A program made the translations under genes and the position numbers. Positions 25,530-41,833 of a stretch of 64,000 nucleotides of DNA are shown one piece after another. Origin of the DNA: Escherichia phage SP15; the sequence record AP019559. One strand, given 5' to 3'. Under the pieces are notes generated by a model, which saw only the letters and a program-made list of their open reading frames with translations, had not been told where the DNA came from and did not search any database. Positions within the stretch are counted from its first letter, which is position 1, and each line of letters begins with the position of its first letter.

Positions 25530-25922
25530 ATGGAACAAGTATATTGGCGTCAGATCGACCCTAGTTTGGTGAAGCGTGCAGAGAAGCTGCTACAACGTTG
25601 GTTGGGGGTAAGACAAGCCTCCTTCACTTTTCCGGAGCAGCAAATAGACGATCCCTGTATTGGTGTTTTCCTATCAGGCTACGCTAGGGAATGGGAATTG
25701 GATTGGAATGAATTGTCTGCTATGGGTTTAATTGTTGCACTAAATTTCTCTTTGTTCCATCCACGTGGTTTGGCCATATGTCGTGTGCCTGAGGACGGTT
25801 GTTCGCCCCATCTTTTACAGGTGGAAGATGATATTTGGGAGTACACTCCAGATATTCTCAAAGAAGCCAAAGAACAATTAAACCGTGTTGGAATTTATAT
25901 TCCAGGCCTGAATGATGAATGA
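25530..25922 (+). CDS. hypothetical protein, paralog B
   Basis: 130 aa, AGGAGG RBS. Confidence 0.5.
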   Translation: MEQVYWRQIDPSLVKRAEKLLQRWLGVRQASFTFPEQQIDDPCIGVFLSGYAREWELDWNELSAMGLIVALNFSLFHPRGLAICRVPEDGCSPHLLQVEDDIWEYTPDILKEAKEQLNRVGIYIPGLNDE

Positions 25923-26061
25923 TTTTTATTGGTTGACCTCTATAATCCGGGCTATTAGTGCTCGGATTATTGCCTAATCTTTCCAGCTAATTGACAGCAT
26001 GAATAAATTGTCATTGACAAATTGAATAGATTATGTAATAATATGTGTATTGGAGGTAAAG

Positions 26062-26514
26062 ATGTCGCTCACACAACAAGAACTTTTAGATAATTTCCGA
26101 TATGAAGATGGAAAATTATTTAGAACCACAGGAAGAAATGCAGGCAAGGAATGTTGTGTTTCAACGGGAAATGGGTATTATCGTATTTCTCTAGGTAGTA
26201 AAACTATGCTCCGACACAGAGCCATCTTCTTAATGCATCATGGTTATCTCCCTGATTTAGTAGATCATGAGAATACTATAAAAGGTGATGATCGTATTGA
26301 AAATCTTAGAGAGCAGACAGTATCCGGTAATCTAAGAAATATCAAATATAAGAAAGGAATGCATGTTTACCCTTCTGGTAGTAAGAACTGGCAAGTAGTA
26401 TTTACTATTAACCGTAAACGTATAGTTAAAGGAACATATGACAACTATGAGGTTGCATGTTCTATGGCCAAGATGTTTAGAGGTCAATTATACGGTAGGG
26501 AATCAATCCAGTAA
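26062..26514 (+). CDS. HNH homing endonuclease (HNH_3 plus AP2-like domain)
   Basis: HRAIFLMHHGYLPDLVDHENTIKGDDRIENLRE; GGAGG RBS before ATG 26062. Confidence 0.65.
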   Translation: MSLTQQELLDNFRYEDGKLFRTTGRNAGKECCVSTGNGYYRISLGSKTMLRHRAIFLMHHGYLPDLVDHENTIKGDDRIENLREQTVSGNLRNIKYKKGMHVYPSGSKNWQVVFTINRKRIVKGTYDNYEVACSMAKMFRGQLYGRESIQ

Positions 26515-27049
26515 AATTTCATTTGCAAGGGAGTATTATTTTATAGTATAATATTCCCATAAATGAGAGATATTAGTAAAAATTGATTTTGCTAATTTTT
26601 CTTGTTTACAATCCGCGATACGGAACAGTTAGGCTGCCCCATTAAGGGTTGTTTTAACTGTTACGTGTTAGTTTTTAAGCAAATAATTAATAGAATACTT
26701 AGCGATCTGCGTCCCGTAGGAACCCTGGTAAGGCCTCGAAGCAACCTAGATAGAGGTGGTTGTGAAGTGAGACGGGAGGAGTGAAAAACTCCGAGACGTG
26801 ATTCTGTAAGTTATATTGCATCTAGTATGAGCTAGTATATGAAGCATTAGGTGAGCAAATCTGGCTTAGCGGCCATCCTCAAGGATTTGTGCGGTATAGC
26901 AAAGCAGCAGCGCAGCGTGAAAGTGGAAGTTGCCACCCCACTTCAGTATTTGCGATTAATTTGTTGAGAAATTGACAGTAACAGTTGTTCTATTCTTTCT
27001 GAATAGTCCTAAAGAAAACTTATTTCATTTCCAACACAGGAGTATTGTT

Positions 27050-29839
27050 GTGTTTTCAATCCTACAAGGTCATGCAGGATTTCATCGCGATTTAGCCACA
27101 GGCAATTGGCGAGAAGTTAAGGCAGAAGATTATCTTTTTGCTAAAAGATTTTCCTCAAAGCATCCCGAAGGTAAACCAGCTTCAATGCCCTTCAAGTTTG
27201 ATGTAATTGATGAAGTTGATCCTCAAACCCTAGTAGAAATGCTTCCTCTTATGAGACGTTTAACGTCTGACCCTCATATCGTTGCGGTACGAGGTCGATG
27301 TCTTGCACCTAAAAATAATGTGCGACGTAAGAAGGGCAACTTTAATGTATCTAATCCAAGTCATATAATCGCAATGGATGTGGATGGTATTGTAGATACA
27401 GGAGGTTGTAACAAGTTTGATCTTGTTGGCATGGCGCGTCATATTATTAGGATGTTGAATAGTATTAGTGAGGATATGTTTCCTCTTGATGCAGGGTTTA
27501 TTGCTCATGCATCATCTTCGGCTGGCCTAAAACCAGGTATCCGAATGCACTTAATACTAGAATCTAATGTTAAAGTTACACAGGGTCAGATCAAGTTCTT
27601 ATTTACATCTATCAACGAAAGTAGTAGACAAAAGTATGGCTTTGATATTGCCGACTTAGCTTATTACTCTTCCGTACAGCTCCACTATTTTGCAGATCCT
27701 TTATTTACTGATGGTATAGTTGATCCGTTTAAAGCGGAGGGTGCTTCACGTCTGGTATTTGTTAAAGGCTCAAAAGTAAATTTACCTAATAATCTAGTTG
27801 ACTATGAAACAACTAGAGGAGAGTTTAAAGAGGAATTCTACTCTTTACTCGATCAAATTAAAGGTAAAAAAGCCGCCTCCGATAAAGTAGAGGAAACTAT
27901 CAGCGAACTAGAAGAAGCTGAGGATGGAGTGTATCTACGTATTATTCCTAAACTCTATCACAGGGCTTTAGAGGATGGTGTTGATTTTGCATGGCTAGAA
28001 AAAGAAATCCGCCCAGCCTTATCAGAGTATATTGCAACTAAAGATAATAGTCGTAATATTCAAGATTATTTTAACAACGGTAGAAAACAGGCTCTGAAAG
28101 CGTTTGTTAATAATTCTAAACGTGATATACCGGATGTTTTAAAAGGTATTCCACTTAAAAAGCTAGAAACTAACTCTCTAGAGACTGATAACTTCTTGAA
28201 ATTAAATACTGTACCACCAGAAGGTTATATGACTTTTGTAAAAGCAAGTCTAGGTACAGGTAAAACTACGGCGGTTGTGCGTTGGTTAGATTCAGGAGTT
28301 ATTAAGGGTAATTTCTTAGCAATTACCAATACTCGAGCACTGGTATCTTCAAATGCTAAGAAATTTAGTGCAGGACAATATGATAAGTCTGTAGATATGC
28401 TTAATTTTAAGCGTGGCGCTATTGACCGTATGTCCACAACTATACATTCTTTGCATAAGTTCAAGAGTTTTATTGGTCAAATCGATGCAATCTTTATCGA
28501 TGAATGTGACGCTGTAATGAATGACCTATTATTCGCCCCGGTTGTTAAACAACGTCGTGAATGTATTCAGGTTCTTCGGGATATTCTTGCAACTGCAAAA
28601 ATCATTATATTATCTGATGGTGATATTAGTGCTGAAACAATTGAAGCATATGGTTCTTTGATTGAGTTTGATAAACCGGTTGCATTTTATAATCATCACC
28701 GTAAGATGCTGTCAAAAGCTCATGCTTATGAGTTCCCTGATGAATCTAGTATTTGGGTTGCACTTCAGACCTCTCTAGAGATGGGTGAGAAATCTATTCT
28801 GGTATCTGATTGTGGGCCGGATGAGCTGAATGAGAAAGGTATGGCACTGCGTCGTAATACGGGTGCGTTAGTTAAGGAAATCCATTCAAACTCTACCTCA
28901 GATGTGGATATTAGACGTATTCTGGATTACACAACTAATGAACTAATTGATCAACAAATTGATTGTTTATTATGTAGTCCATCCGTAACGAGTGGTGTTG
29001 ACTTTAACTATTTTGATAACGTATTTGTTATTACTAGAACTAGTAATCAAGCGCCAAACATGCGTTTCCAAGCAATCAGGCGCGACCGTGGTGCTCAGAA
29101 TATCTATTATTTTATTGATAAATCCACTAGTGGATTCTCCGCAGGTTCTGAACAATATAATATTGATGAGGGTTGGCTGGAGTTAGCACAGCAATTATAC
29201 GCACGTCGCAGGGAGCTGGAATCTAGGAACTATACTAGTACTTTACGTTATTACTTACTTGATCAGGGTGCAACTATTGATATTTTCAGTGAAAGCTGGG
29301 GAACTATTGAAGGTGCTGGTAAAGAGTATACAGAAGAGCGAATCAAAGCTATTCTGCACTCAACTCCTGATTATTGTGCTCCACGTCATGCGGATGCGTA
29401 TGAAGCTAAACTACTTCTTGTTCGCTATTATCATCTGGAGTCTATTAAAGATGTAACCGTTGAGCATGTTGAACAATATATCAAAGATAAGCCGAATGAT
29501 CGAGCTGCATTCTTCCATAAGATGCATGAGATGTTCTGGGAAGATATTAAGAAGTGTTCAAATGTCACTATCAAACCTTTCATAGAAGCTCTGAAAGGTA
29601 AGAAGAAAGATTTCTTCCTTAAAACAGGTCAGAGTGCTAACCCAAAATATGCTAGAATGTATCTTGGTATGATGGGTATTGGTAAAGATATGAACACGGA
29701 GAATATCGTAGACTGGTACAGAACCTATTGTAAAATCGAGTGTATGCCAATTCCTTTCAAATTCATGACAGAGGAAGAACGTCAGATGCACGAGGAAGCA
29801 ATGTCAGAGCTAGGTGCTAGAAATGACAGTGAAGAATAA
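27050..29839 (+). CDS. large P-loop NTPase, putative replication initiation/origin-binding helicase-like protein
   Basis: Walker A SLGTGKTTAV and Walker B IFIDECDAV; likely GTG start 27050 after AGGAG (track start 26972 is TTG inside a TTGACA box). Confidence 0.6.
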   Translation: MFSILQGHAGFHRDLATGNWREVKAEDYLFAKRFSSKHPEGKPASMPFKFDVIDEVDPQTLVEMLPLMRRLTSDPHIVAVRGRCLAPKNNVRRKKGNFNVSNPSHIIAMDVDGIVDTGGCNKFDLVGMARHIIRMLNSISEDMFPLDAGFIAHASSSAGLKPGIRMHLILESNVKVTQGQIKFLFTSINESSRQKYGFDIADLAYYSSVQLHYFADPLFTDGIVDPFKAEGASRLVFVKGSKVNLPNNLVDYETTRGEFKEEFYSLLDQIKGKKAASDKVEETISELEEAEDGVYLRIIPKLYHRALEDGVDFAWLEKEIRPALSEYIATKDNSRNIQDYFNNGRKQALKAFVNNSKRDIPDVLKGIPLKKLETNSLETDNFLKLNTVPPEGYMTFVKASLGTGKTTAVVRWLDSGVIKGNFLAITNTRALVSSNAKKFSAGQYDKSVDMLNFKRGAIDRMSTTIHSLHKFKSFIGQIDAIFIDECDAVMNDLLFAPVVKQRRECIQVLRDILATAKIIILSDGDISAETIEAYGSLIEFDKPVAFYNHHRKMLSKAHAYEFPDESSIWVALQTSLEMGEKSILVSDCGPDELNEKGMALRRNTGALVKEIHSNSTSDVDIRRILDYTTNELIDQQIDCLLCSPSVTSGVDFNYFDNVFVITRTSNQAPNMRFQAIRRDRGAQNIYYFIDKSTSGFSAGSEQYNIDEGWLELAQQLYARRRELESRNYTSTLRYYLLDQGATIDIFSESWGTIEGAGKEYTEERIKAILHSTPDYCAPRHADAYEAKLLLVRYYHLESIKDVTVEHVEQYIKDKPNDRAAFFHKMHEMFWEDIKKCSNVTIKPFIEALKGKKKDFFLKTGQSANPKYARMYLGMMGIGKDMNTENIVDWYRTYCKIECMPIPFKFMTEEERQMHEEAMSELGARNDSEE

Positions 29840-30056
29840 AAAATGGGAAACAAGGAAGTTTCCAGTAAAAGAACGCAAAGTTCCTGTTTATGATACTTCG
29901 GAGAAGCTATGTAGGGTGGTACCGCATAGATTAGCTGGTATCCCTAACATATCCGAGTGGTTACTTAAACAACGGAGGACTAACGTATCTCTTCGCGTAG
30001 GGTTTGAGTTAGATAAAGTATATGCTGAACTTTCTTCTTTGCTCAAAGAATCATAA
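29823..30056 (+). CDS. hypothetical protein
   Basis: 77 aa from ATG 29823; overlaps end of preceding gene. Confidence 0.4.
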   Translation: MTVKNKKWETRKFPVKERKVPVYDTSEKLCRVVPHRLAGIPNISEWLLKQRRTNVSLRVGFELDKVYAELSSLLKES

Positions 30057-30065
30057 AAAATTTAT

Positions 30066-30094
30066 TTGCTTTCAGGAAAAATTTTCTGTATAAT
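30066..30094 (+). promoter_or_regulatory. T5 P_N25-like early promoter
   Basis: AAATTTATTTGCTTTCAGGAAAATTTTTCTGTATAATAGATTCATAAATTTGAGAGAGGAG matches the P_N25 sequence as I recall it. Confidence 0.75.
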
Positions 30095-30125
30095 AGATTC
30101 ATAAATTTGAGAGAGGAGTTTAAAT

Positions 30126-30830
30126 ATGGCTGGTTCTCGCAGAAAGAAACATATCCATGAAATCCCGGATGAAGTCTTTAAAAAAGTTATAGAGCACCTG
30201 GAGAACGGTGGTACTAAGAAAGCAGCATGTGAAATGCTCGGCGTATCATCCAATCCAACTATGGAAAGGATGATAGAAGAGTGGCAAGACCGGCAGATCC
30301 AAGTTGCCGAGATGAAGAAAAAGAAACGCGGTACACTCATTGAAGGCATTGAGTTGGCCAACGTTATTGAACAGTATCTATCTGGTGATTCCTTTGAGGA
30401 GATTGCCGATCGTAATTATCGTTCTGTAGCAATGGTTAAATCTGTTCTGGAACGCTATGGTGCTCTGCTTCGTTTGAACGATATTGTAGATCCATTGAAC
30501 CCACCAATTATTCCTGATGATGCTGTAGCAGAAGAATTTGAGGTAGGTGAGCTTGTTTGGGTTCCTGGATACCAGTGTATCGGTGAAATCAAAAAAGCAA
30601 TGGATAACCCTGTCGGTTGTTACCGTGTATGGCTTCTATCAGAAGGCAAACAACAGAACGTTCATTATATGAATTACGAGCTGGCTTCTGTTAAACATCT
30701 GGAAAAGTTAGGGGTTGATGTAAAGTCTCTGGGGTACAAATGGTCCCGGGAAGAAGTTATCACACTGATTAACGAAGCTGTTAAGGCTGCCCTGAAACTT
30801 GATAAAGAAAAAGGTAAACGTCGTGAGTAG
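30126..30830 (+). CDS. putative DNA-binding (HTH) early protein downstream of P_N25-like promoter
   Basis: 234 aa; strong promoter and GAGAGGAG RBS upstream. Confidence 0.6.
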   Translation: MAGSRRKKHIHEIPDEVFKKVIEHLENGGTKKAACEMLGVSSNPTMERMIEEWQDRQIQVAEMKKKKRGTLIEGIELANVIEQYLSGDSFEEIADRNYRSVAMVKSVLERYGALLRLNDIVDPLNPPIIPDDAVAEEFEVGELVWVPGYQCIGEIKKAMDNPVGCYRVWLLSEGKQQNVHYMNYELASVKHLEKLGVDVKSLGYKWSREEVITLINEAVKAALKLDKEKGKRRE

Positions 30831-31074
30831 ACTAACTGATTTACTTAAAGATGGGGAAGTAAAAACGCTATATCGTAGAAGCTGGGATAACGATAATAAC
30901 GGCTTAGTGTTACTAACTTTAGATGCTGACTCGGATGTAGCTACTCAGCATACCTGGGTAGCCGGTAACTATCCATATAGCGAGGTTGTTTCATTAACAG
31001 TATGCGAAGCTATTGCGGACGATTGGGAGGTTGCCAGCATTGATGATATGCTCGCTGTTGGCCTGGTGGAGTAA
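30799..31074 (+). CDS. hypothetical protein
   Basis: Start uncertain; GTG at 30823 follows an AAGGTA SD-like sequence. Confidence 0.4.
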   Translation: MIKKKVNVVSRLTDLLKDGEVKTLYRRSWDNDNNGLVLLTLDADSDVATQHTWVAGNYPYSEVVSLTVCEAIADDWEVASIDDMLAVGLVE

Positions 31075-31091
31075 CTACTTAAAAATTTCAG

Positions 31092-31120
31092 TTGCTTAAT
31101 CCTATAATTCTTGATATAAT
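31092..31120 (+). promoter_or_regulatory. T5-type early promoter
   Basis: TTGCTT-17 nt-TATAAT. Confidence 0.55.
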
Positions 31121-31177
31121 ATTCTCATAGTTTGAAAGAACTATTCTGTTTAATTCTTAATTAAGGAAATATAAAAT

Positions 31178-31588
31178 ATGACTACTCCAACTCAGTGGAC
31201 TGATGAACTGTTTGAAAAAATGTCTTCCGAATATGTTGCTCGTATGGAGCAATTCCCAGAGGATGAACGTCCGGGTGTTAGCATGGAAATTGTTAGCGAA
31301 ATTGCCCAGGAAAATGGTGTAACTCCGAACGGTTTTCGTATGAAGCTGACTAAAGCAGGTTTGTATATCAAGAAAGCTGCTGGTTCTACTTCGAAATCTA
31401 GCGCATCTACTGGAGAAAAAGCTTCCGGTGGTTCTCGTACCTCCAAAGCTCAAGCCCATGCCGACCTTCGTTCAGCTTTCTCTGATGCTGGCTTAGCACC
31501 AGATTTTCTGGATGATGCAATTATCGACAAACTGACCGGTAAAGCGGCTGCTCATCTGGCAGAAGCAATCCGAGCTATCACTAAGTAA
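31178..31588 (+). CDS. hypothetical protein
   Basis: 136-aa ORF, AAGGAAA RBS. Confidence 0.55.
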   Translation: MTTPTQWTDELFEKMSSEYVARMEQFPEDERPGVSMEIVSEIAQENGVTPNGFRMKLTKAGLYIKKAAGSTSKSSASTGEKASGGSRTSKAQAHADLRSAFSDAGLAPDFLDDAIIDKLTGKAAAHLAEAIRAITK

Positions 31589-31625
31589 TATTTAGATAAA
31601 TCCACCAACAAAAGGAACTATAGCT

Positions 31626-31922
31626 ATGACTAAAGCTGAAATTATTGCACAGTGCGAAAAATTTGGTGAGTTTTATCTTCATTACGAGAAACTTCGTCAG
31701 AAAGGAACCACGTACCTTCAGGGTACAATGGAATTTGATCCAGCCCAAGATAAATATCTGGCTGAGCGTATTAAACGTGAACGTATTCGTAAAGCGAAAG
31801 ATGATGAAATCCTTGTCTTCTCTCGTACTAATGATAGCTTCCGTTTTATTCCTGTCGAGAAAGTTCGTCGTGTGACTAGCCTCCAATCAGAGTTAGATCG
31901 TGCTTCTCCAGTAGGCCGATAA
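31626..31922 (+). CDS. hypothetical protein
   Basis: 98-aa ORF followed by hairpin terminator. Confidence 0.55.
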   Translation: MTKAEIIAQCEKFGEFYLHYEKLRQKGTTYLQGTMEFDPAQDKYLAERIKRERIRKAKDDEILVFSRTNDSFRFIPVEKVRRVTSLQSELDRASPVGR

Positions 31923-31924
31923 GA

Positions 31925-31952
31925 AAACAATTAGCCCCTATATGGGGCTTTT
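31925..31952 (+). terminator. rho-independent terminator
   Basis: AGCCCCTATATGGGGCT hairpin then TTTTTGTG. Confidence 0.6.
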
Positions 31953-31972
31953 TGTGTATTTGGGATATGTAA

Positions 31973-32281
31973 ATGAGCGAACAGGTAAATCAAAACTATG
32001 AAGGACACGTTGATGACCAGTCCATCATACTTTGGGAGAAGGAGGGGGAACAAGTAAGATTAACAGTATCTGAATTTCGTGGGAATCTATACATGGGTAT
32101 TCGTTACTGGCTTCTTGATATTAATGATGAATGGTTTCCAACGAAATCTGGCTTCTCTTTTCCTTACACCCTAGAAACAACATCACAGCTTTTCTATGCG
32201 TTTACACAGATTCTTAGCGAATCTGAGGTTTTACATGAAGTACAGAAACGAGCTGAAGAACTCAAAGCCAAGAATGCCTAG
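31973..32281 (+). CDS. PC4-like ssDNA-binding protein
   Basis: VRLTVSEFRGNLYMGIRYW...PTKSGFSF resembles the PC4/YdbC fold signature. Confidence 0.45.
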   Translation: MSEQVNQNYEGHVDDQSIILWEKEGEQVRLTVSEFRGNLYMGIRYWLLDINDEWFPTKSGFSFPYTLETTSQLFYAFTQILSESEVLHEVQKRAEELKAKNA

Positions 32282-32308
32282 TTCTTGGCTTTTTCTTTAT
32301 AAATGTAT

Positions 32309-32337
32309 TTGCTTTCAACTCAGTTTTGTTATATAAT
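32309..32337 (+). promoter_or_regulatory. T5-type early promoter
   Basis: TTGCTT-17 nt-TATAAT, conserved leader. Confidence 0.55.
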
Positions 32338-32367
32338 ATTTATATAAATTAATGAGAGGATTGCAAA

Positions 32368-32640
32368 GTGAAAAAGATAAATATAAGTACACTTAAACCT
32401 TTTCCATATATCGGACAGCCTCTCATCCTCATGTGGGAGGAAAAGATTAATGGGGAAAAGTATACTAAAACTAGAATTGGGTATAAACTGATTTCACTTT
32501 ATTACGAAAAAGAAGTATTAATAGCTGAAATATACTCTCCATTATCGGATAGGCTAGTAAAAACTACATATTTGCATCTTTGCAAAAATTATACGTGGCA
32601 CGGATCTACCAGACAACCCACGTACTATGAGGCAGAATAA
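32368..32640 (+). CDS. hypothetical protein
   Basis: 90-aa ORF, GTG start. Confidence 0.45.
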   Translation: MKKINISTLKPFPYIGQPLILMWEEKINGEKYTKTRIGYKLISLYYEKEVLIAEIYSPLSDRLVKTTYLHLCKNYTWHGSTRQPTYYEAE

Positions 32641-33612
32641 ATGACTAATGTAAAAGAATTTATTAAACGCTGTCAAGAAGCATATTATCGGGGTATGTCT
32701 TTAATCTCTGATGAGGAGTATGATTGCCTGGTAAAACGCTTCCCGTTAGAAGAAGAGATCGGGCCTAAGGGTGATATTCCACATCTGTACCGTATGTATT
32801 CTTTACAGAAAGTTTATTATAATCGTGGGGATAAACCACCATTTAATCCTTTAGGTCAGGTAGAAACTGATAAGTTAGATGGTTGTGCAATTTCTCTGCT
32901 ATATATTAACGGCGAATTTGTTCAAGCACTAACTCGTGGTAATGGTATTCTAGGGAATGATGTCACAAGCAACGTAAGACTGCTGAATATCCCTAAAAAG
33001 ATTTCCCAAAAAGTACCAACTCAAATCACTGGTGAAGTTCTAATTACAAAAGAAGTAGAAAATAAACGTAACTTTGCCTCTGGTGCTATTAACCTCAAAG
33101 ATAGTGATGATTTCGTACAACGTATCGGGGAAGGTGGTTTAATCTTCGTTGCATACGGTATCCAGTGTTCTGCCGAATCTGTAGGTATTACAGAAGCATA
33201 CTTAAAAGATATGCTTTGGCTAGAGAATGAGAACTTCTTAACAGTTGTTAATGTGCGTTCCTTCTTTAAATGGATTCCGACGGACGGTAAAGTTGTTCGT
33301 ATTAATGACAACAACAAATTCTTCCGAGAAGGCTGGACTAATAAATTCCCTCGCGGGGCGTTCGCTATTAAAGAGGATGAAGAAGGCGAGATTACAACTC
33401 TTACTAAAGTTGAATGGCAGGTAGGGGCTTCTGGTAAAGTAACTCCAGTTGGTTATTTCGAACCGGTAATTATTGATGATGCTACAATTGTTAAAGCGAC
33501 TCTTAATAACGTTGATTATATTAACTCTCTCGATCTAGAGATCGGTTGCCAGATTCGAGTGATTCGTGCTGGTGGTGTAATCCCGTGCATAGTAGAGCGA
33601 GTATACGATTAA
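32641..33612 (+). CDS. NAD-dependent DNA ligase, adenylation/OB-fold part (split ligase subunit A)
   Basis: Adenylation motif TDKLDG (KxDG), RGDG-like and OB-fold blocks. Confidence 0.75.
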   Translation: MTNVKEFIKRCQEAYYRGMSLISDEEYDCLVKRFPLEEEIGPKGDIPHLYRMYSLQKVYYNRGDKPPFNPLGQVETDKLDGCAISLLYINGEFVQALTRGNGILGNDVTSNVRLLNIPKKISQKVPTQITGEVLITKEVENKRNFASGAINLKDSDDFVQRIGEGGLIFVAYGIQCSAESVGITEAYLKDMLWLENENFLTVVNVRSFFKWIPTDGKVVRINDNNKFFREGWTNKFPRGAFAIKEDEEGEITTLTKVEWQVGASGKVTPVGYFEPVIIDDATIVKATLNNVDYINSLDLEIGCQIRVIRAGGVIPCIVERVYD

Positions 33613-33755
33613 CTAACAACCCTTTGCTACCCATCTACCATATCGGAATTATAAAGTGGTTATTGACATTTTCGCCGCTTAGGTATATACTATTATCATT
33701 CAGTTGAGGGATAGAAAGTTATGGCGAGGGTAAGCAAAGTTAGTTAAAATTGTAG

Positions 33756-33784
33756 TTGCTAAATGCTTAAATACTTGCTATAAT
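33756..33784 (+). promoter_or_regulatory. T5-type early promoter for ligase subunit B
   Basis: TTGCTA-17 nt-TATAAT. Confidence 0.55.
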
Positions 33785-33814
33785 ATTTATATAAATTGAT
33801 AAGGAAGAAATTTG

Positions 33815-34594
33815 ATGAAAATCGAAATTCCAACACAATGTCCCTCTTGTGGTTCTAAGCTCGATCTTGTCAACGGACAATTATTCTGTCGTAATAAGTC
33901 CAACTGTCCAGCACAATCAAGTAAGTTAATTGAGAACTTCTGTACAAAAATGAAGTTAAAGGGTTTTGGCCCAAAAACTATTGAGAAGCTGGAGCTGACG
34001 AAGATTTCAGAACTATTTTACCTAACCGAAGAAGATTTGGTTAGAGCCGTGGGTAGCAAGGTTGCCGCTAAGTTAATTAGCGAATTAAATACTAAAGTTC
34101 GCGGAGACATTGACTTTGGTTCAGTTCTCGGTTCTTTAGGAATCCCTCTAATTGGAGAGGTTGCAGCAAAGAAATTATCCCAAAATTGCACTAGCTTCCA
34201 CGATGTGAAGGCTGACGGCAAGGCTGGAGAAAACTATAAAGCCTGGCTAAATTCCACACAAGGCAAGGATGTTATCGAATTACCGTGGAAATTCACAACT
34301 GGTATTAAAGGTGCTAAAGCCGAGGTCATCATTACTGATGGTCTAGTAGCCCAACCAAATGGAATAACGGTATGTATTACCGGATCTTTGCAAGATTTTG
34401 CAAATAGAACGGATGCAACAAACTATCTAGAAGGTCTAGGGTATACTGTTAAAAAATCAGTTACCAAAGACGTTAAATACCTAATCTGTGAGGATGAATC
34501 TAAGCGTTCTTCCTCATCTTATAAGAAAGCCGAAACGAATGGGATAGAAATCCTGTCGATTAAAGAACTATTGGAGAAAAATAATAATGTCTAA
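33815..34594 (+). CDS. NAD-dependent DNA ligase, Zn-finger/HhH/BRCT part (split ligase subunit B)
   Basis: CPSCGSKL...CRNKSNCPAQ Zn-finger, HhH-like GIPLIGEV, C-terminal BRCT-like region; ATG 33815. Confidence 0.7.
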   Translation: MKIEIPTQCPSCGSKLDLVNGQLFCRNKSNCPAQSSKLIENFCTKMKLKGFGPKTIEKLELTKISELFYLTEEDLVRAVGSKVAAKLISELNTKVRGDIDFGSVLGSLGIPLIGEVAAKKLSQNCTSFHDVKADGKAGENYKAWLNSTQGKDVIELPWKFTTGIKGAKAEVIITDGLVAQPNGITVCITGSLQDFANRTDATNYLEGLGYTVKKSVTKDVKYLICEDESKRSSSSYKKAETNGIEILSIKELLEKNNNV

Positions 34595-35354
34595 ACTGAA
34601 CTGGAACGTAGAGGGTGTAACCGAGTCTCTGAAAGCAAAAGCCACTGCTCTGGGTGTTGATGTAATCTCTCAAGAACAAGTAGCTGCTATCGCTGCTGAA
34701 CTGGCTGCTGAAACTGGCAAAGACGTTACCGCTCGCTCTGTTGGCTCTAAGCTGCGTAAAGAAGGTTTCGAAGTACAGAAAGCTAACGAAGTACAGAAAT
34801 CCCCGTGGACTCCTGAGCAGGAAGCTGAACTGGTTGATTTCCTGAACGCTCATGCTGGTCAGTATACTTATGCTGAAATCGCTGCTGCTGTAGCTGGTGG
34901 TCAGTTCGGTGCTAAACAGGTACAGGGTAAGATCCTGAGTCTGGAAATGACCGCTTCTGTTAAACCAACTGAAAAAGCTGCTGCTGTTCGTTCCTTCACC
35001 CCTGATGAAGAAACTGATTTTGTTAACCAGGTTGTTGCTGGTGCTACTATTGAAGCTATCGCTGCTCACTTCGGTCGCAATATTAAGCAGATCCGTGGTA
35101 AAGCTCTGAGTCTGCTTCGTGAAGGTCGTATCGCCGCTATGCCGGTACAGGAAACTTCAAGTGCTAAAACTCGTGAAGATCTGTTAGAAGGTCTGGATCT
35201 GGCTAACATGACCGTTGCTGAGATTGCTGAGAAAACTGGTAAGTCTGAGCGTGGTGTTAAATCTATGCTGTCTCGTCGTGGTCTGGTTGCTAAGGACTAT
35301 GATGGTGCCGCTAAGCGTGCTAAACTGGATGCAAAAGCTGCGGCTGCTGAATAA
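34587..35354 (+). CDS. putative DNA-binding protein with three tandem HTH-like repeats; highly expressed codon usage
   Basis: Repeats TYAEIAAAVAG, TIEAIAAHFGRNIKQIRGKALSL, TVAEIAEKTGKSERGVKSMLSRRGL; strong CTG/CGT/GCT/GGT bias. Confidence 0.55.
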   Translation: MSKLNWNVEGVTESLKAKATALGVDVISQEQVAAIAAELAAETGKDVTARSVGSKLRKEGFEVQKANEVQKSPWTPEQEAELVDFLNAHAGQYTYAEIAAAVAGGQFGAKQVQGKILSLEMTASVKPTEKAAAVRSFTPDEETDFVNQVVAGATIEAIAAHFGRNIKQIRGKALSLLREGRIAAMPVQETSSAKTREDLLEGLDLANMTVAEIAEKTGKSERGVKSMLSRRGLVAKDYDGAAKRAKLDAKAAAAE

Positions 35355-35372
35355 TCTGGTAAATTAAACCTA

Positions 35373-35403
35373 AGGGGAGGGGGCTATGCTCCTTCCCCTT
35401 TTT
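35373..35403 (+). terminator. rho-independent terminator after the HTH-repeat protein gene
   Basis: 8-bp stem GGGGAGGG/CCTTCCCC then TTTTT. Confidence 0.6.
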
Positions 35404-35436
35404 GCATTTAGAAGGCACGAAAGCGTGCAAAGGAGA

Positions 35437-36909
35437 ATGACCTTGTTTAACGTGCAAGCTGTAGTGTTGAAGATGCTTCTAGCTTCCGAACAGAAGCAAA
35501 TAGCATTGGAAACATTCTCAAAACTGCATAAAGATCATTTTAATGACGCTTTCTCCTCAATTTACCAAGCCGTCCAGAATTATTATAAAAAATATAACAC
35601 AATGCCGTCCATTGACGCACTGATGCTTGAGGCTAATAGGAACGCCCGCCTTTCTCAAGCTCTAGTCGTTTTAGCTAACACTCAAATTCCAGAAGTTAGC
35701 ATGGAACAGGCACTTGAAGTCCTAGAAGCCGAGTATACACAGGATTTATTCCTGAAGCTTCTAGAAACAGACGTGCTTCAAGATTTAACAATGCTGGATC
35801 AGGGAGAAATTCTTAACCGAGTTGCCTCCCTTCACTTAAAATTAGAAGAGAAAGTAACGAATACTGGAAAAGTATTCAACGCAGATAACATGCGTATTTT
35901 CCAGAGAGAAGAAGATACCAAACTGAACTTAATCGCTCTTGGTATCTGTAATGAGTTCGACGCTCAAATTGGTTTAGCTCGCACAGAAACGTTACTGCTT
36001 GGTGGTTGGCGTGGTACTGGTAAATCCATTATCTGTTCAAACATACAGGTTCAGCAATATTTGAATGGGGATATTGCTCCATACTTCTCAATTGAGATGA
36101 AAGAACATGAAGTATTTAGACGTAATCTAGCCATGTTAGCTGGTGTATCCGCACTAGCAATGCGTAATAATACTCTAGAAGGCGCAGCTCTGTTGAGATT
36201 AGCCAGAACTAGAGCTAGGATGTTTAATGGTGGTGAAGAGCTTTTCGATAACTTCGTTAAACAGTACACAATGGCTAAGATGAGTGATTTCTACGATATG
36301 GAAAGTAAGCTAATAGAAGGGTATGAACTACATACTCCTATGATTATTGTTTATGATCCTGAGCTGTCTATTACAACAGTTGACGTAGAATTAAATAAAT
36401 TAGTTGCTAGATATGGGGATAAAGTTACAGTAGCTTTACTGGACTATATTAACCAAACCCGACTTCCAGATTCTAAAACCATTGATATGTATGACTGGAA
36501 AGAACAGATGGTTGTTAGCTCGTCTTTCAAATCTATCTGCCAGAAACATAACGTGGCTGGCGTAGCTCCTTACCAGATCGATCAAGATGGTAGAACACGT
36601 ATGTCAAAAGGGATTCTTGATTCCGCAGACATGGCTGCTAATCTTAATGCTGCAAAAGCTGATAATGGTCAAGGTGCTATTATGTTTGACTTCGTTAAGA
36701 CTCGTTCTTCTGATAGCGTGAAGTTTATGCCTAAAATGAACTGGGAAACCCTGCGGATGGATAATACTACCAACCTAGCAATGGAAGATATATCTCAAAT
36801 GGAAGCTGAGTTCGTTATCCCTATTGAGAAGGATAAGCCGGCTCAATCTAAACGTGCTAAGAAAGACAAAGCTGAAAATTCAACAGGTGAACAGGCCAGC
36901 GATATATGA
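35437..36909 (+). CDS. DnaB-like replicative helicase
   Basis: RecA-fold Walker A GGWRGTGKS and Walker B-like block; start uncertain (ATG 35437 or TTG 35443) because the track start lies in the upstream terminator hairpin. Confidence 0.65.
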   Translation: MTLFNVQAVVLKMLLASEQKQIALETFSKLHKDHFNDAFSSIYQAVQNYYKKYNTMPSIDALMLEANRNARLSQALVVLANTQIPEVSMEQALEVLEAEYTQDLFLKLLETDVLQDLTMLDQGEILNRVASLHLKLEEKVTNTGKVFNADNMRIFQREEDTKLNLIALGICNEFDAQIGLARTETLLLGGWRGTGKSIICSNIQVQQYLNGDIAPYFSIEMKEHEVFRRNLAMLAGVSALAMRNNTLEGAALLRLARTRARMFNGGEELFDNFVKQYTMAKMSDFYDMESKLIEGYELHTPMIIVYDPELSITTVDVELNKLVARYGDKVTVALLDYINQTRLPDSKTIDMYDWKEQMVVSSSFKSICQKHNVAGVAPYQIDQDGRTRMSKGILDSADMAANLNAAKADNGQGAIMFDFVKTRSSDSVKFMPKMNWETLRMDNTTNLAMEDISQMEAEFVIPIEKDKPAQSKRAKKDKAENSTGEQASDI

Positions 36910-37439
36910 TAACACAGGAAAGGCTAAAAGAGTTATTTGATTACTCCCCAGAAACTGGGGAGTTTACTAGAAAAGTATCTAGAGGTAATCAGAAAGCTGG
37001 TAGTATAATAACCAGAAAAGACTCTAACGGTTATATAATTATTGGTATAGATGGCAAGGGTTACAAAGCCCATCGGATGGCTTTTCTATTTATGGAAAAT
37101 ACATTGCCGGAAAAAGTAGACCATGTAAACAGAATACCTTTTGATAATAGGTGGTGTAATCTAAGAGACGCCACAGCTCAGGAAAATAGTAGAAATAAAA
37201 CCGCATGTAGTAAGTCTGGATATTTGGGAGTTGCTTGGGATATCGAAAAACAAAGATGGAGAGTTCAAGTAAGAGACTCTAATAGCACTCTTAAAAATGG
37301 TGGCAGATTTAAGTATGAAGAGCTAGAGCTAGCTGTAAATTCAGCAAATATATTAAGGACTAAGTTACATGGAGAACGTGCTGTTATAGAAATTTTTGAT
37401 ACATCCAATTATCCTTCACTGGAGGAGTTAAATTCATGA
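36906..37439 (+). CDS. HNH homing endonuclease (HNH_3 plus AP2-like domain)
   Basis: YKAHRMAFLFMENTLPEKVDHVNRIPFDNRWCNLR; paralogous to 26062..26514. Confidence 0.65.
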   Translation: MITQERLKELFDYSPETGEFTRKVSRGNQKAGSIITRKDSNGYIIIGIDGKGYKAHRMAFLFMENTLPEKVDHVNRIPFDNRWCNLRDATAQENSRNKTACSKSGYLGVAWDIEKQRWRVQVRDSNSTLKNGGRFKYEELELAVNSANILRTKLHGERAVIEIFDTSNYPSLEELNS

Positions 37440-38326
37440 GTCGAATAACAGAATTACTTGATCTTAAGGGAATTGAGTATAAAGATACTGGTGGAGATAT
37501 TTTAATCTGTTGTCTCAATCCAGATCATGACGATAAACACCCAAGTTTGCGTATTGACCCTGAAACAGGTATTATGCACTGCTTGAGTTGTGGCTTCGGT
37601 AAAGGTATACCGAGCATTTACCATTATTTTAATGAGACTCAGTACCGACAGTCCCCAAGGCTATCACAAGTACGTAAAAAGATTTCAGAGATTAGGAATG
37701 GATCAACGAATCTTGCAATTCCTGAATCTGCTTACCTTTTTGAAGGTGATTTCCGAGGTATAAGTTCTAAGACCTTGAAGAAATATTTTGCTTTCCAACA
37801 CCAAGCAGACTGGGAAGGCAGAATCGTATTCCCAATCACAGATGCTGTTGGACGCAATATCCTATTTTTGGGTCGTTCTATAAACAGTTCTGCCCCTCCT
37901 AAATACTTAGTAAAACCAAAACAAGTTTCACCGCCAATTTTTCCTGTACGATATAATACTCCAGTTCTTATTCTAGTTGAAGGCATCTTTGATATGCTGA
38001 ACCTAGAGGATAATGGTATAGACTACGCTTCTTGCTGCTTTGGTACACATCAGTTTACTTCGGATAACATTGCAGATAAGTTCAGTCCTTATATTATTGC
38101 CGGTGTAAAAGTTGTTGTTATCTTACTAGATAATGATGCTTCTGGTAATAAAGCTGCACAAGCATTGGCCAAGCTAATTCGTACAAAAACGCGTTTAACA
38201 CCTGTAGTTGCTAACTTTCTTCTGCCTGAAGGTAAAGACCCGGGTGACTTAAATAAAGAAGAGATTGATATGTTAGCAAAACGTATTGAAATTTTAGTTG
38301 CTGAATCGCTTAAAGATTTGGTATAA
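37436..38326 (+). CDS. DNA primase (Zn-ribbon plus Toprim)
   Basis: CCLNPDHDDKHPSL...CLSCGFGKG Zn-binding; Toprim LILVEGIFDML...LLDNDASGNKAA. Confidence 0.8.
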   Translation: MSRITELLDLKGIEYKDTGGDILICCLNPDHDDKHPSLRIDPETGIMHCLSCGFGKGIPSIYHYFNETQYRQSPRLSQVRKKISEIRNGSTNLAIPESAYLFEGDFRGISSKTLKKYFAFQHQADWEGRIVFPITDAVGRNILFLGRSINSSAPPKYLVKPKQVSPPIFPVRYNTPVLILVEGIFDMLNLEDNGIDYASCCFGTHQFTSDNIADKFSPYIIAGVKVVVILLDNDASGNKAAQALAKLIRTKTRLTPVVANFLLPEGKDPGDLNKEEIDMLAKRIEILVAESLKDLV

Positions 38327-38352
38327 TAGTCCTAAATAACTGAGGAGCTACT

Positions 38353-38682
38353 ATGGAATATGTATATATTTACGAGGATGTTCCAGTATACGATAGTATA
38401 ACACACGAAGAGGTTAAACTAGAGCTGTTTACAGTACTAGAGTCCCTTAATAAACGGAAGGATTTTCATTTATTTGGTGATCCTAAATTACCTGCATCTT
38501 ATATTTTCTTTAAAGTAAAAGATACAGGTCAAGAGGTGTATCTAACTTATGATTGGGCTGTTGTAGAAAATACTGAGCAATCTATGAAAGTGTTAGGTGC
38601 TTTTCTGCGTATAGTTGAAGAATTTCAGGCACTAGAAAAGCAGCGCAATGAAATGCGTAAATTACTACATACCTATAAATAG
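38353..38682 (+). CDS. hypothetical protein
   Basis: 109-aa ORF. Confidence 0.5.
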   Translation: MEYVYIYEDVPVYDSITHEEVKLELFTVLESLNKRKDFHLFGDPKLPASYIFFKVKDTGQEVYLTYDWAVVENTEQSMKVLGAFLRIVEEFQALEKQRNEMRKLLHTYK

Positions 38683-38685
38683 TAT

Positions 38686-38714
38686 TTGCTATTATCCCAA
38701 TATTTTGATATAAT
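38686..38714 (+). promoter_or_regulatory. T5-type early promoter for DNA polymerase gene
   Basis: TTGCTA-17 nt-TATAAT. Confidence 0.55.
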
Positions 38715-38775: not shown

Positions 38776-41343
38776 TTGAAAATCGCAGTAGTTGATAAAG
38801 CCCTAAATAACACTCGTTATGATAAACATTTCCAGCTATACGGCGAGGAAGTTGATGTATTCCATATGTGTAACGAGAAGTTGTCCGGTCGTTTGCTCAA
38901 AAAGCATATTACTATCGGGACTCCGGAAAACCCATTTGACCCGAATGATTATGATTTTGTTATACTGGTAGGTGCCGAACCTTTCCTGTACTTTGCAGGT
39001 AAAAAAGGTATTGGTGATTATACCGGTAAACGTGTAGAGTATAATGGGTATGCTAACTGGATTGCGAGTATCAGCCCAGCCCAGTTACACTTTAAACCTG
39101 AAATGAAACCAGTTTTTGATGCAACAGTAGAGAATATCCACGATATTATCAATGGTCGTGAGAAGATTGCAAAAGCTGGTGATTACCGTCCTATTACTGA
39201 CCCTGATGAGGCAGAAGAATATATCAAGATGGTGTATAATATGGTTATCGGACCTGTCGCATTCGACTCCGAAACCTCAGCACTATACTGTCGAGATGGT
39301 TATCTGCTTGGTGTTTCTATTTCTCACCAAGAGTATCAGGGTGTATATATCGATTCTGATTGTCTCACAGAGGTTGCAGTATATTACCTCCAGAAAATTC
39401 TGGATAGTGAAAACCACACTATTGTTTTTCACAACTTGAAGTTTGATATGCACTTTTATAAGTACCATCTGGGACTTACTTTTGATAAAGCACATAAAGA
39501 ACGCAGGCTCCATGATACCATGTTGCAGCACTATGTTCTAGATGAACGTCGGGGTACTCATGGCTTGAAATCTCTAGCAATGAAGTATACCGATATGGGT
39601 GACTATGACTTCGAACTAGATAAGTTCAAAGATGATTACTGCAAAGCACATAAAATCAAGAAAGAAGATTTCACCTATGATTTAATTCCGTTTGATATTA
39701 TGTGGCCTTACGCTGCGAAAGATACAGATGCCACCATACGTTTGCACAACTTCTTCTTACCAAAAATTGAGAAGAATGAAAAACTTTGCAGTCTGTATTA
39801 CGATGTTTTGATGCCTGGTTGCGTATTCTTGCAACGTGTTGAAGATCGTGGTGTACCTATTTCTATTGATCGTTTAAAAGAAGCTCAATATCAGTTAACC
39901 CATAATCTGAATAAGGCCCGTGAGAAACTGTACACTTATCCAGAAGTTAAACAGCTAGAACAAGATCAGAATGAAGCATTTAACCCAAACTCTGTTAAGC
40001 AGCTACGTGTTCTTCTGTTTGATTACGTTGGCTTAACTCCAACAGGTAAACTGACGGATACTGGAGCAGATTCTACGGATGCAGAAGCTCTAAATGAACT
40101 GGCTACGCAGCATCCAATTGCTAAAACTCTGCTAGAGATTCGTAAGCTGACTAAGCTGATCTCTACTTATGTTGAGAAGATTCTACTGAGTATTGATGCA
40201 GATGGTTGCATTCGTACTGGTTTCCATGAACATATGACTACTTCTGGTCGTCTGAGTTCTTCTGGTAAACTGAACCTGCAACAGTTACCTCGTGATGAAT
40301 CTATTATCAAGGGTTGTGTAGTAGCTCCTCCGGGGTATCGTGTAATCGCATGGGACTTAACAACTGCGGAAGTTTATTATGCTGCTGTTCTATCTGGGGA
40401 TAGAAATATGCAACAAGTATTTATCAACATGAGAAATGAACCTGATAAATACCCTGACTTCCACTCTAACATCGCACACATGGTATTTAAGCTCCAATGC
40501 GAACCTCGTGATGTTAAAAAGTTATTCCCAGCTCTGCGTCAAGCAGCTAAAGCAATTACCTTTGGTATTTTGTATGGTTCTGGCCCAGCTAAAGTAGCTC
40601 ATTCTGTTAACGAAGCTCTTCTGGAGCAGGCTGCTAAGACAGGCGAACCGTTTGTAGAGTGTACTGTTGCAGATGCTAAAGAGTACATTGAAACTTACTT
40701 CGGTCAGTTCCCGCAGCTTAAGCGTTGGATTGATAAGTGCCACGATCAGATCAAGAATCATGGATTTATCTACAGTCACTTTGGTCGTAAACGTCGTCTG
40801 CATAATATCCACTCCGAAGACCGTGGTGTTCAGGGTGAAGAAATCCGTTCTGGATTTAACGCAATCATTCAGTCTGCTTCTTCTGATAGTCTCCTTTTAG
40901 GTGCTGTAGATGCAGATAATGAGATCATTTCTCTTGGCCTAGAACAAGAGATGAAGATTGTTATGCTGGTTCATGACTCCGTAGTTGCTATTGTTCGTGA
41001 AGACTTGATTGATCAATACAATGAAATCCTGATTCGTAATATTCAGAAAGACCGTGGTATCAGTATTCCTGGCTGTCCGATTGGTATTGATTCAGATTCT
41101 GAAGCTGGAGGTTCTCGTGACTATTCTTGCGGTAAGATGAAGAAACAGCACCCATCAATCGCTTGTATTGATGATGATGAATATACTCGTTATGTTAAAG
41201 AAATGCTACTTGATGCAGATTTCGAGTATAAGAAATTAGCTGCAATGGATAAAGAGCATCCAGATCATAGCAAGTACAAGGATGATAAGTTTATTGCTGT
41301 ATGTAAAGATCTGGATAACGTGAAAAGGATTCTCGGTGCTTAA
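38776..41343 (+). CDS. DNA polymerase, family A, with 3'-5' exonuclease domain
   Basis: Exo motif VAFDSETSALY, Pol A motifs; TTG start 38776 after AAGAGGAG. Confidence 0.9.
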   Translation: MKIAVVDKALNNTRYDKHFQLYGEEVDVFHMCNEKLSGRLLKKHITIGTPENPFDPNDYDFVILVGAEPFLYFAGKKGIGDYTGKRVEYNGYANWIASISPAQLHFKPEMKPVFDATVENIHDIINGREKIAKAGDYRPITDPDEAEEYIKMVYNMVIGPVAFDSETSALYCRDGYLLGVSISHQEYQGVYIDSDCLTEVAVYYLQKILDSENHTIVFHNLKFDMHFYKYHLGLTFDKAHKERRLHDTMLQHYVLDERRGTHGLKSLAMKYTDMGDYDFELDKFKDDYCKAHKIKKEDFTYDLIPFDIMWPYAAKDTDATIRLHNFFLPKIEKNEKLCSLYYDVLMPGCVFLQRVEDRGVPISIDRLKEAQYQLTHNLNKAREKLYTYPEVKQLEQDQNEAFNPNSVKQLRVLLFDYVGLTPTGKLTDTGADSTDAEALNELATQHPIAKTLLEIRKLTKLISTYVEKILLSIDADGCIRTGFHEHMTTSGRLSSSGKLNLQQLPRDESIIKGCVVAPPGYRVIAWDLTTAEVYYAAVLSGDRNMQQVFINMRNEPDKYPDFHSNIAHMVFKLQCEPRDVKKLFPALRQAAKAITFGILYGSGPAKVAHSVNEALLEQAAKTGEPFVECTVADAKEYIETYFGQFPQLKRWIDKCHDQIKNHGFIYSHFGRKRRLHNIHSEDRGVQGEEIRSGFNAIIQSASSDSLLLGAVDADNEIISLGLEQEMKIVMLVHDSVVAIVREDLIDQYNEILIRNIQKDRGISIPGCPIGIDSDSEAGGSRDYSCGKMKKQHPSIACIDDDEYTRYVKEMLLDADFEYKKLAAMDKEHPDHSKYKDDKFIAVCKDLDNVKRILGA

Positions 41344-41833
41344 TTTCAAATTGCCCGTCTATGCGTTACGGGCGTTTGTATCAATTGAGCAAGAAGGTGA
41401 TTATTCCGTAATTACAACAAGATATAATAAATATGTGCTAGATAACAGGAAGTTGCCTGGCACGTTTTCTCAACGTAGGCTTATTCTATTTGAGAAACGG
41501 AAAGAATTACCATACAAGCTCTATCCTATTAGAGGTAGAATATCAATGTTGTCTCAATTAGTTGGGTCAAAGCGTAACCAATTTATAGATTCTGATGGAA
41601 ATCTTATTAATTGGAAGAAAACTACGTTCTACGATGTTGTCACCTCTAAAGTTTTGCATTCAGCTAGAATTTATAATGGAAAATACCAATGCTATGTGGC
41701 TAAAGTCCCTTATCCATTTGTATTATCCTATGTTCCAGCTTATATAAGCTATATTCTGGTAAATAATAGCCCTGTTATTTATCAAGTCCATCAAGAGGAG
41801 CCTGAAATTCCTAGACTTAGAATAAAATTATGA
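41336..41833 (+). CDS. hypothetical protein (no in-frame ATG until codon 69; GTG start)
   Basis: GTG 41336 after AAAGGA; translationally coupled to downstream helicase (ATGA overlap). Confidence 0.4.
   Translation: MLNFKLPVYALRAFVSIEQEGDYSVITTRYNKYVLDNRKLPGTFSQRRLILFEKRKELPYKLYPIRGRISMLSQLVGSKRNQFIDSDGNLINWKKTTFYDVVTSKVLHSARIYNGKYQCYVAKVPYPFVLSYVPAYISYILVNNSPVIYQVHQEEPEIPRLRIKL

Follow-up and report, generated by a model that had tools for sequence, protein, structure and literature searches.

The 64,000 nucleotides of Escherichia phage SP15 (sequence record AP019559) analyzed here, hereafter the window, carry two genes encoding HNH endonucleases, HNH1 and HNH2 (Table 1). Between 23 and 45 kb, the window is collinear with phage T5 (NC_005859) at a nucleotide identity of 88 to 98% and encodes the T5 replication genes: origin-binding protein, D2, D3, a split NAD ligase, D5, the D6 helicase, primase, DNA polymerase, T5.123, and the D10 helicase. 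The window corresponds to the DNA replication module of a T5-like phage (Tequintavirus). Distributions were counted among ~440 matching T5-like GenBank records of Tequintavirus and Epseptimavirus, with denominators of 437 to 444 depending on the query. An earlier note on this DNA had placed two HNH open reading frames (ORFs) at 26062-26514 and 36906-37439, and the coordinates of both are right: the products match Pfam HNH_3 and PHROG 99 ("HNH endonuclease"; expect value [E] of 1e-41 for HNH1 and 3e-58 for HNH2). The same note located both genes between replication genes, which is true of HNH2, lying between helicase and primase, but not of HNH1, whose neighbors are a DUF7415 gene (unknown function, homolog of T5.107) on one side and the long leader of the origin-binding-protein gene on the other.

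Domain content and fold of HNH1 and HNH2

Both proteins score above the gathering threshold of Pfam HNH_3. In an alignment of 73 homologs, H56, D72, H73, N81, N85, N94, and N97 are invariant or nearly so, and the catalytic Asp-His and Asn are kept, as in HNH domains of the beta-beta-alpha-metal type. The window allele of HNH1 has Glu after the catalytic His, where AKFV33 orf111-type orthologs have Val. An AlphaFold model of HNH2 (predicted local distance difference test score of 95.8) shows a C-terminal three-stranded sheet packed on a helix, the arrangement of an AP2/ERF domain, and Foldseek matched this model to AtERF1 with a probability of 1.00 and a template-modeling score of 0.75. By sequence, the HNH2 family profile matches I-HmuI (E of 6e-8) and WRI1 (E of 1.8e-10); this profile was required, since a PDB sequence search with HNH2 alone returned only spurious repeat-protein matches. 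Pfam AP2 and HNH_3 occur together in ~40% of database homologs.

These results bear on the label "HNH_3/AP2-type" that the two genes had been given. The HNH_3 part holds for both. The AP2 part holds for HNH2, because the Foldseek match, the family profile, and the domain content of homologs all support it, whereas AP2-related Pfam scores stay below threshold for both proteins (AP2 at an E of 0.033 for HNH2 and Arm-DNA-bind_3 at an E of 0.04 for HNH1). As modeled, HNH2 is an I-HmuI-like HNH nuclease fused to a C-terminal AP2 DNA-binding domain. HNH1 aligns over its full length with the family (hidden Markov model [HMM] E of 2e-34), and its C terminus is matched weakly, by Arm-DNA-bind_3 only. 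The two proteins share 30% identity (E of 2e-15) and are the sole members of their family within the window. They had also been called paralogous; common family membership is clear, but duplication within this genome is not established.

Insertion sites and flanking variation

The DNA inserted with HNH2 is 530 bp long and bordered by ATGA at 36906-36909 and 37436-37439. These borders are overlaps with the helicase stop codon and the primase start codon, so that the gene is indeed tightly wedged on both sides, as had been noticed from the letters. Alleles lacking the insert have a single ATGA in which helicase ends and primase starts; the insert duplicates it. A spread sample of the 443 records at this junction revealed two states only, a span equal to that of the query or exactly 530 bp shorter. 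The site is occupied in ~60 to 70 of 443 records (~85% lack HNH2) and in 10 of 29 IMG/VR loci. The 3' end of HNH2 contains a putative Shine-Dalgarno sequence for primase, GGAGGAG, which empty alleles lack. Three allele classes occur at the site: A (the window and T5 hegJ), B (VAH1, NR01-like), and C (T5_ev219). Their proteins are 64 to 72% identical, with the first 34 residues identical and the last ~12 nearly so, and diverge mainly in the nuclease core and the AP2 domain; GGAGGAG is kept in all three. At one locus, L011, HNH2 is 92.5% identical to that of the window while the helicase flank is 99% identical.

The first 75 nucleotides (nt) of the primase gene vary with the occupancy of the site. 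A single haplotype is common here to all of the 20 empty genomes, which come from both genera (nucleotide diversity, pi, of 0.007), whereas carriers of HNH2 show at least four haplotypes differing almost entirely by synonymous changes (pi of 0.12). Divergence between carriers and empty genomes is 0.16 in this segment versus 0.03 to 0.075 in the rest of the gene, with fixed differences at primase nt 51, 66, and 69 (37486, 37501, and 37504). Compared to genomes without the homing endonuclease gene, the window differs at 12 to 14 of these 75 nt versus 10 to 71 of the other 816 (Fisher P of 2e-9 to 2e-2); against empty genomes that are 97 to 99% identical, 13 differences fall in the 75 nt and 10 to 35 in the other 816 (Fisher P down to 2e-9). 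No endonuclease-linked variation was found at the 3' end of the helicase gene. Such a pattern would be expected if the enzyme recognized conserved DNA immediately downstream of the insertion point, with carriers protected by silent changes, co-converted donor sequence, or both. Hence, the first 75 nt of primase probably mark the cleavage target of HNH2 together with self-protection of the carrier, and an altered target or co-converted tract thus appears to lie right beside this insertion.

A further reading of this junction is possible, although we hold it tentatively and consider it less probable than its opposite. The helicase-primase junction might be a contested homing site, at which three endonuclease alleles swap by intragenic recombination and coevolve with synonymous primase "immunity" haplotypes in the first 25 codons, with a candidate target of ~30 bp at 37477-37510. 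If true, natural isolates would directly record an arms race in which a selfish nuclease faces an essential replication gene, and a small new HNH-AP2 enzyme that nicks or cuts would have a defined candidate target of ~30 bp.

HNH1 is organized differently. Empty alleles have a conserved 130-nt terminator-promoter spacer at this site, ~100 nt of which are replaced in the window by a 606-nt HNH1 cassette composed, in order, of a diverged terminator hairpin, a promoter, GGAGG, the HNH1 ORF, and a new promoter for the downstream transcript. The 3' part of the cassette is 100% identical across all HNH1-bearing genomes examined and stands where empty alleles have the ancestral promoter segment. HNH1 is present in 41 of 442 related records (~9%). 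Comparison of window positions 25922-26561 with 28 loci (L089 to L116) revealed a hotspot that takes at least five states, with spacer lengths of 130 nt (empty, 16 loci), 125 nt (a variant at 1 locus), 227, ~300, 396, 638 (HNH1), and 761 nt. In SHSML-45, the 761-nt spacer comprises the HNH1 cassette together with the ancestral promoter and a duplicate of the 42-nt start of the leader. Small ORFs take the place of HNH1 in GEC_vB_N5, which is the closest relative at the HNH2 site. In Epseptimavirus mar003J3, HNH1 is 92% identical to that of the window and the 3' end of the cassette 100%, compared with 71% for the upstream flanking genes. In carriers, the ancestral spacer is replaced and both borders have diverged, but the alignment of empty and occupied alleles yielded no discrete HNH1 target.

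The neighboring leader of the origin-binding-protein gene has features of its own. It comprises ~490 nt of non-coding DNA (26562-27049) from the promoter to the gene start, which is probably a GTG at 27050 with AGGAG 8 nt upstream, and is apparently structured and unannotated. Two allelic forms exist, less than 50% identical over ~310 nt, each tied to its own origin-binding-protein allele. The leader haplotype was considered as an HNH1-linked co-conversion tract and rejected, as both leader types are found with and without HNH1. The leader folds better than shuffled sequences (z of -3.05) and contains a closed domain at ~26655-26987 with an invariant GGCTTAGCGGCC at 26863-26874. A common predicted structure of the two forms has 23 compensatory pairs, versus 2 to 4 in slid controls, in a consensus derived from the same alignment as the pair count and covering two deep lineages only. 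An invariant CUUAGCGG motif within the leader recurs ahead of the origin-binding-protein gene in distant Demerecviridae, in which the encoded protein is 61 to 73% identical. For the CUUAGCGG hairpin, a MAFFT alignment across these distant phages misaligned the stems, and single-sequence folds were no better than shuffles. Rfam searches of the intergenic and leader regions gave no match. The leader may be a regulatory 5' untranslated region or an origin or primer RNA matched to its initiator.

Selection, mobility, and competing explanations

Both HNH genes are under strong purifying selection, with ratios of nonsynonymous to synonymous substitution rates (dN/dS) of 0.03 to 0.08 (0.04 for HNH1) over dS of up to 0.44. 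All four combinations of presence and absence occur among isolates, indicative of independent assortment, and both genes come and go sporadically between intact flanking genes. Discordance between gene and flank, a sign of horizontal spread, is observed for both as well: HNH1 is closer than its flanks in mar003J3, and HNH2 is more distant than its flank in L011. The earlier note had taken universal presence at conserved positions, together with a lack of cleavage activity, as the outcome that would speak against mobility; neither gene is universal, and the sites are variable among related phages as it anticipated (41 and ~60 to 70 occupied records). The proposal of mobile homing elements thus agrees with the sporadic, independently assorting, and flank-discordant distribution, with purifying selection, and with the expected pattern at the primase 5' end. 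HNH1 and HNH2 are very likely free-standing (intron-less) homing endonuclease genes of the HNH_3/I-HmuI type, encoding predicted nucleases with a C-terminal DNA-binding domain that is AP2-like in HNH2 and may be so in HNH1.

Homing would proceed in mixed infection. A carrier phage would coinfect with a T5-like relative lacking the gene, and the enzyme would bind the empty allele at a particular conserved sequence. For HNH2, this sequence most likely lies in the first ~75 nt of primase, and for HNH1, somewhere in the conserved terminator-promoter spacer replaced by the cassette. The bound enzyme would then nick or cut the empty allele, and recombinational repair from the endonuclease-bearing genome would copy the gene and some flank into the recipient. 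An altered copy of the target would protect the carrier, through synonymous substitutions in the case of HNH2 and segment replacement in the case of HNH1. Both insertions also seem to be built harmless: HNH2 by its ATGA overlaps with helicase and primase and by supplying a strong ribosome-binding site to the latter, HNH1 by bringing its own promoter along with a replacement promoter for the origin-binding-protein transcript.

Several points weigh against this interpretation. Enzymatic or genetic data for HNH1 or HNH2 were not found in the searchable literature, and database names conflict, "putative P-TflX" in T5 versus "F-TflVIII" in Gostya9. About 85 to 90% of relatives are empty, which would mean inefficient homing, rare coinfection, a cost of carrying the gene, or resistance of many empty alleles. 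HNH1 has Asp at the central Asn position held by more than 90% of the family (GDDR versus DNR), and its AP2 domain is only putative. The invariant primase haplotype of empty alleles could also reflect nucleotide-level constraint on primase translation initiation instead of marking the target.

Might the genes serve another purpose? As weapons of competition between phages (marker exclusion), they would cut the genomes of coinfecting relatives to reduce their yield, and gene spread would be a by-product. The evidence for homing, namely a specific nuclease, a sporadic distribution, and an altered target in carriers, would fit this equally, and so would three divergent allele classes vying for one site. 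Sequence data do not separate competition from homing, since it invokes the same molecular mechanism with another selective benefit, and we regard it as unlikely to be the primary role.

Even less probable is a core function of HNH1 and HNH2 as domesticated phage enzymes, such as the nickase that introduces site-specific single-strand interruptions into T5 virion DNA or an accessory nuclease of packaging or replication. Both genes lie in the replication module under purifying selection. The Gostya9 ortholog of HNH2 is labeled a "nicking homing endonuclease," the characterized T5 HNH enzymes F-TflI, II, and IV are described as site-specific endonucleases, and the structure closest to HNH2, I-HmuI, is a homing endonuclease of the same fold. 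I-HmuI nicks one strand. However, ~85 to 90% of T5-like genomes lack each gene, and a core function is not expected to be dispensable in most relatives. BF23 virion DNA is nicked like that of T5 (PMC10644984), yet the BF23 replication module has no HNH1, HNH2, or hegI (a third family member, below); because of this, HNH1 and HNH2 are ruled out as makers of the T5 virion nicks.

Least probable of all is that the genes are inactive remnants kept by linkage, with the primase 5' cluster a hitchhiked donor sequence or a product of relaxed constraint after a new ribosome-binding site arose: most relatives do lack the genes, HNH1 has the Asn-to-Asp change, and the new Shine-Dalgarno sequence of HNH2 could relax constraint on the primase 5' end, but decay is excluded because both genes are under purifying selection, no copy examined has a disrupted reading frame, the catalytic Asp-His and Asn are kept, and 12 to 14 changes per 75 nt versus 1 to 9% elsewhere lie far beyond neutral expectation for genomes otherwise 97 to 99% identical.

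Core genes and other inserts of the module

A third ORF, between the polymerase and the D10 helicase, had been noted for its lack of an ATG start and grouped with the HNH genes as occupying a similar position. Its start is indeed a GTG, at 41336, but the grouping fails, as the ORF is present in 435 of 444 related records, at the same length and in one collinear piece. It starts 8 nt ahead of the polymerase stop codon, and its end shares ATGA with the D10 helicase start. The product matches PHROG 4386 over its full length; homologs are confined to T5-like phages and have a conserved N terminus. Domain and profile searches detected no nuclease domain or signature, and the fold search gave a weak ligase-like match. 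Distribution, fold, and the missing nuclease domain all reject the alternative of a degenerate homing endonuclease. This near-universal ORF is a core gene, not a mobile element.

Three further sites differ from T5. At the 3' end of its origin-binding-protein gene, T5 has a third gene of the HNH_3/AP2 family, hegI, whose product matches the HNH2 family HMM at an E of 7e-35. In T5, the 3' end of hegI restores the C-terminal codons of the origin-binding-protein gene. The site is empty in the window, and the 50 nt next to it differ from T5 at many positions, forming a local substitution cluster. The 277-bp insertion lies directly upstream of ligA. The 377-bp insertion at the junction of primase and DNA polymerase is, on sequence comparison, a further optional cassette; it has a promoter with a 10/12 match and TG at 38686-38714, 3' of its ORF. 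Of 437 related records, 49 contain this insertion, BF23 (BF23_00138) among them, as do 0 of 28 close IMG/VR loci. Its ORF has no Pfam match and no nuclease signature.

The NAD-dependent DNA ligase is encoded in two parts, ligA (32641-33612) and ligB (33812-34594), separated by a 200-nt gap with a promoter; the arrangement is the same in T5 and BF23. The fold matches include PDB 9hu3, the entry for a heterodimeric ligase of a phage in complex with a "phage nick sequence."

Table 1 Features of the HNH1 and HNH2 loci and of other sites in the replication module (window coordinates)
Feature	Position	Strand	Evidence or remarks
HNH1 cassette, 5' part	25923-26061	+	Alignment with empty (T5, Lindwurm) and occupied (JLBYU40, SHSML-45, mar003J3) alleles; promoter scan
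Diverged copy of upstream terminator hairpin, in HNH1 cassette 5' part	25944-25968	+	
HNH1's own sigma-70-like promoter, TTGACA-17-AATAAT with TG (extended -10), 11/12 match	26014-26042	+	Promoter scan
HNH1 Shine-Dalgarno GGAGG ahead of ATG	26052-26056	+	
HNH1, predicted free-standing HNH_3 homing endonuclease gene, 150 amino acids	26062-26514	+	Pfam HNH_3 E of 1.1e-10; PHROG 99; AKFV33 orf111 ortholog
HNH1 cassette, 3' part	26515-26560	+	Replacement promoter for downstream leader and origin-binding-protein gene
Replacement promoter TTGCAA-18-TATAAT in HNH1 cassette	26523-26552	+	Promoter scan
hegI (T5.109) empty site, 3' end of origin-binding-protein gene	29778-29819	+	Occupied in T5, no hegI in window (BLAST against T5; T5 annotation)
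277-bp insertion relative to T5, directly upstream of ligA	32358-32636	+	ORF 32368-32640, 90 amino acids, GTG start, PHROG 35018 (unknown function)
HNH2, predicted HNH (I-HmuI-like) plus AP2 homing endonuclease gene, 177 amino acids	36906-37439	+	Pfam HNH_3 E of 6.3e-8; T5 hegJ/T5.120 ortholog
Putative primase Shine-Dalgarno GGAGGAG, inside HNH2 3' end	37421-37427	+	Sequence and alignment; absent from empty alleles
Putative HNH2 recognition/cleavage region, primase codons 3 to 25	37442-37510	+	Haplotypes of genomes without versus with the endonuclease gene
377-bp insertion relative to T5, primase/DNA polymerase junction	38328-38704	+	ORF 38353-38682, 109 amino acids, PHROG 35630
Third ORF, T5.123 homolog, 165 amino acids, GTG start	41336-41833	+	Conserved core gene of unknown function

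Comparison with known systems

For annotation, the module sorts into core genes (helicase, primase, polymerase, the T5.123 homolog, and D10) and optional selfish inserts (HNH1, HNH2, the missing hegI, and two small ORFs), and the latter explain the differences seen here between otherwise near-identical T5-like phages. The finding is already known, both in kind and for these very genes; it is correct but ordinary, because the BF23 paper (PMC10644984) already attributes the differences between T5-like genomes mainly to homing endonuclease genes. The additions made here are modest: exact insertion boundaries, a candidate target in the primase 5' end, and three endonuclease alleles at one site, which together ease the design of a cleavage and specificity experiment.

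The ortholog of HNH2 in T5 is hegJ (T5.120, "putative H-N-H endonuclease P-TflX"; F-TflVIII in Gostya9), annotated in 2004-2005. It has the same 534-bp length, the same position between D6 helicase and primase, and the same overlaps, at 97.5% nucleotide and 98% amino acid identity; the few substitutions include Gly52 of the window, Asp in most alleles. No primary characterization came up in literature searches on P-TflX, F-TflVIII, or hegJ. The closest structure is that of I-HmuI from Bacillus phage SPO1 (PDB 1U3E), which has the HNH fold in common with HNH2. I-HmuI is encoded within a group I intron and has a different C-terminal DNA-binding module, whereas HNH2 is free-standing with an AP2 domain as that module. 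The link of HNH1 and HNH2 to the T5 enzymes F-TflI, II, and IV (Akulenko et al. 2004) consists of database names and citations only. HNH1 is absent from T5; AKFV33 orf111, JLBYU40_136, SHSML-45 gp104, and mar003J3 orf111 occupy the same site at 92 to 99% nucleotide identity, and AKFV33 orf111 has been noted as a divergent homing endonuclease (PMC3326045).

The free-standing seg and mob genes of T4-like phages (SegB in PMC2330249) offer a functional parallel. They are likewise intron-less, home between coinfecting relatives, and are inserted between conserved genes or beside them; the target lies near but off the insertion point, and flanking markers are co-converted. Seg proteins, however, are GIY-YIG enzymes, unlike HNH1 and HNH2, and the Mob proteins of T4 combine an HNH nuclease with zinc-finger DNA-binding domains in place of AP2 (PMC10448857). 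Proteins combining HNH and AP2 are a recognized homing endonuclease family whose genes cluster near replisome genes (PMC10448857). This family (Magnani et al. 2004, cited within PMC10448857; ICP1-like "IPA-HNH") resembles HNH2 in its N-terminal HNH and C-terminal AP2 domains, its phage-borne genes, and their location beside essential replisome genes. The IPA-HNH domains of ICP1 reportedly diverge too far for detection by the Pfam HNH_3 profile, which HNH1 and HNH2 match directly.

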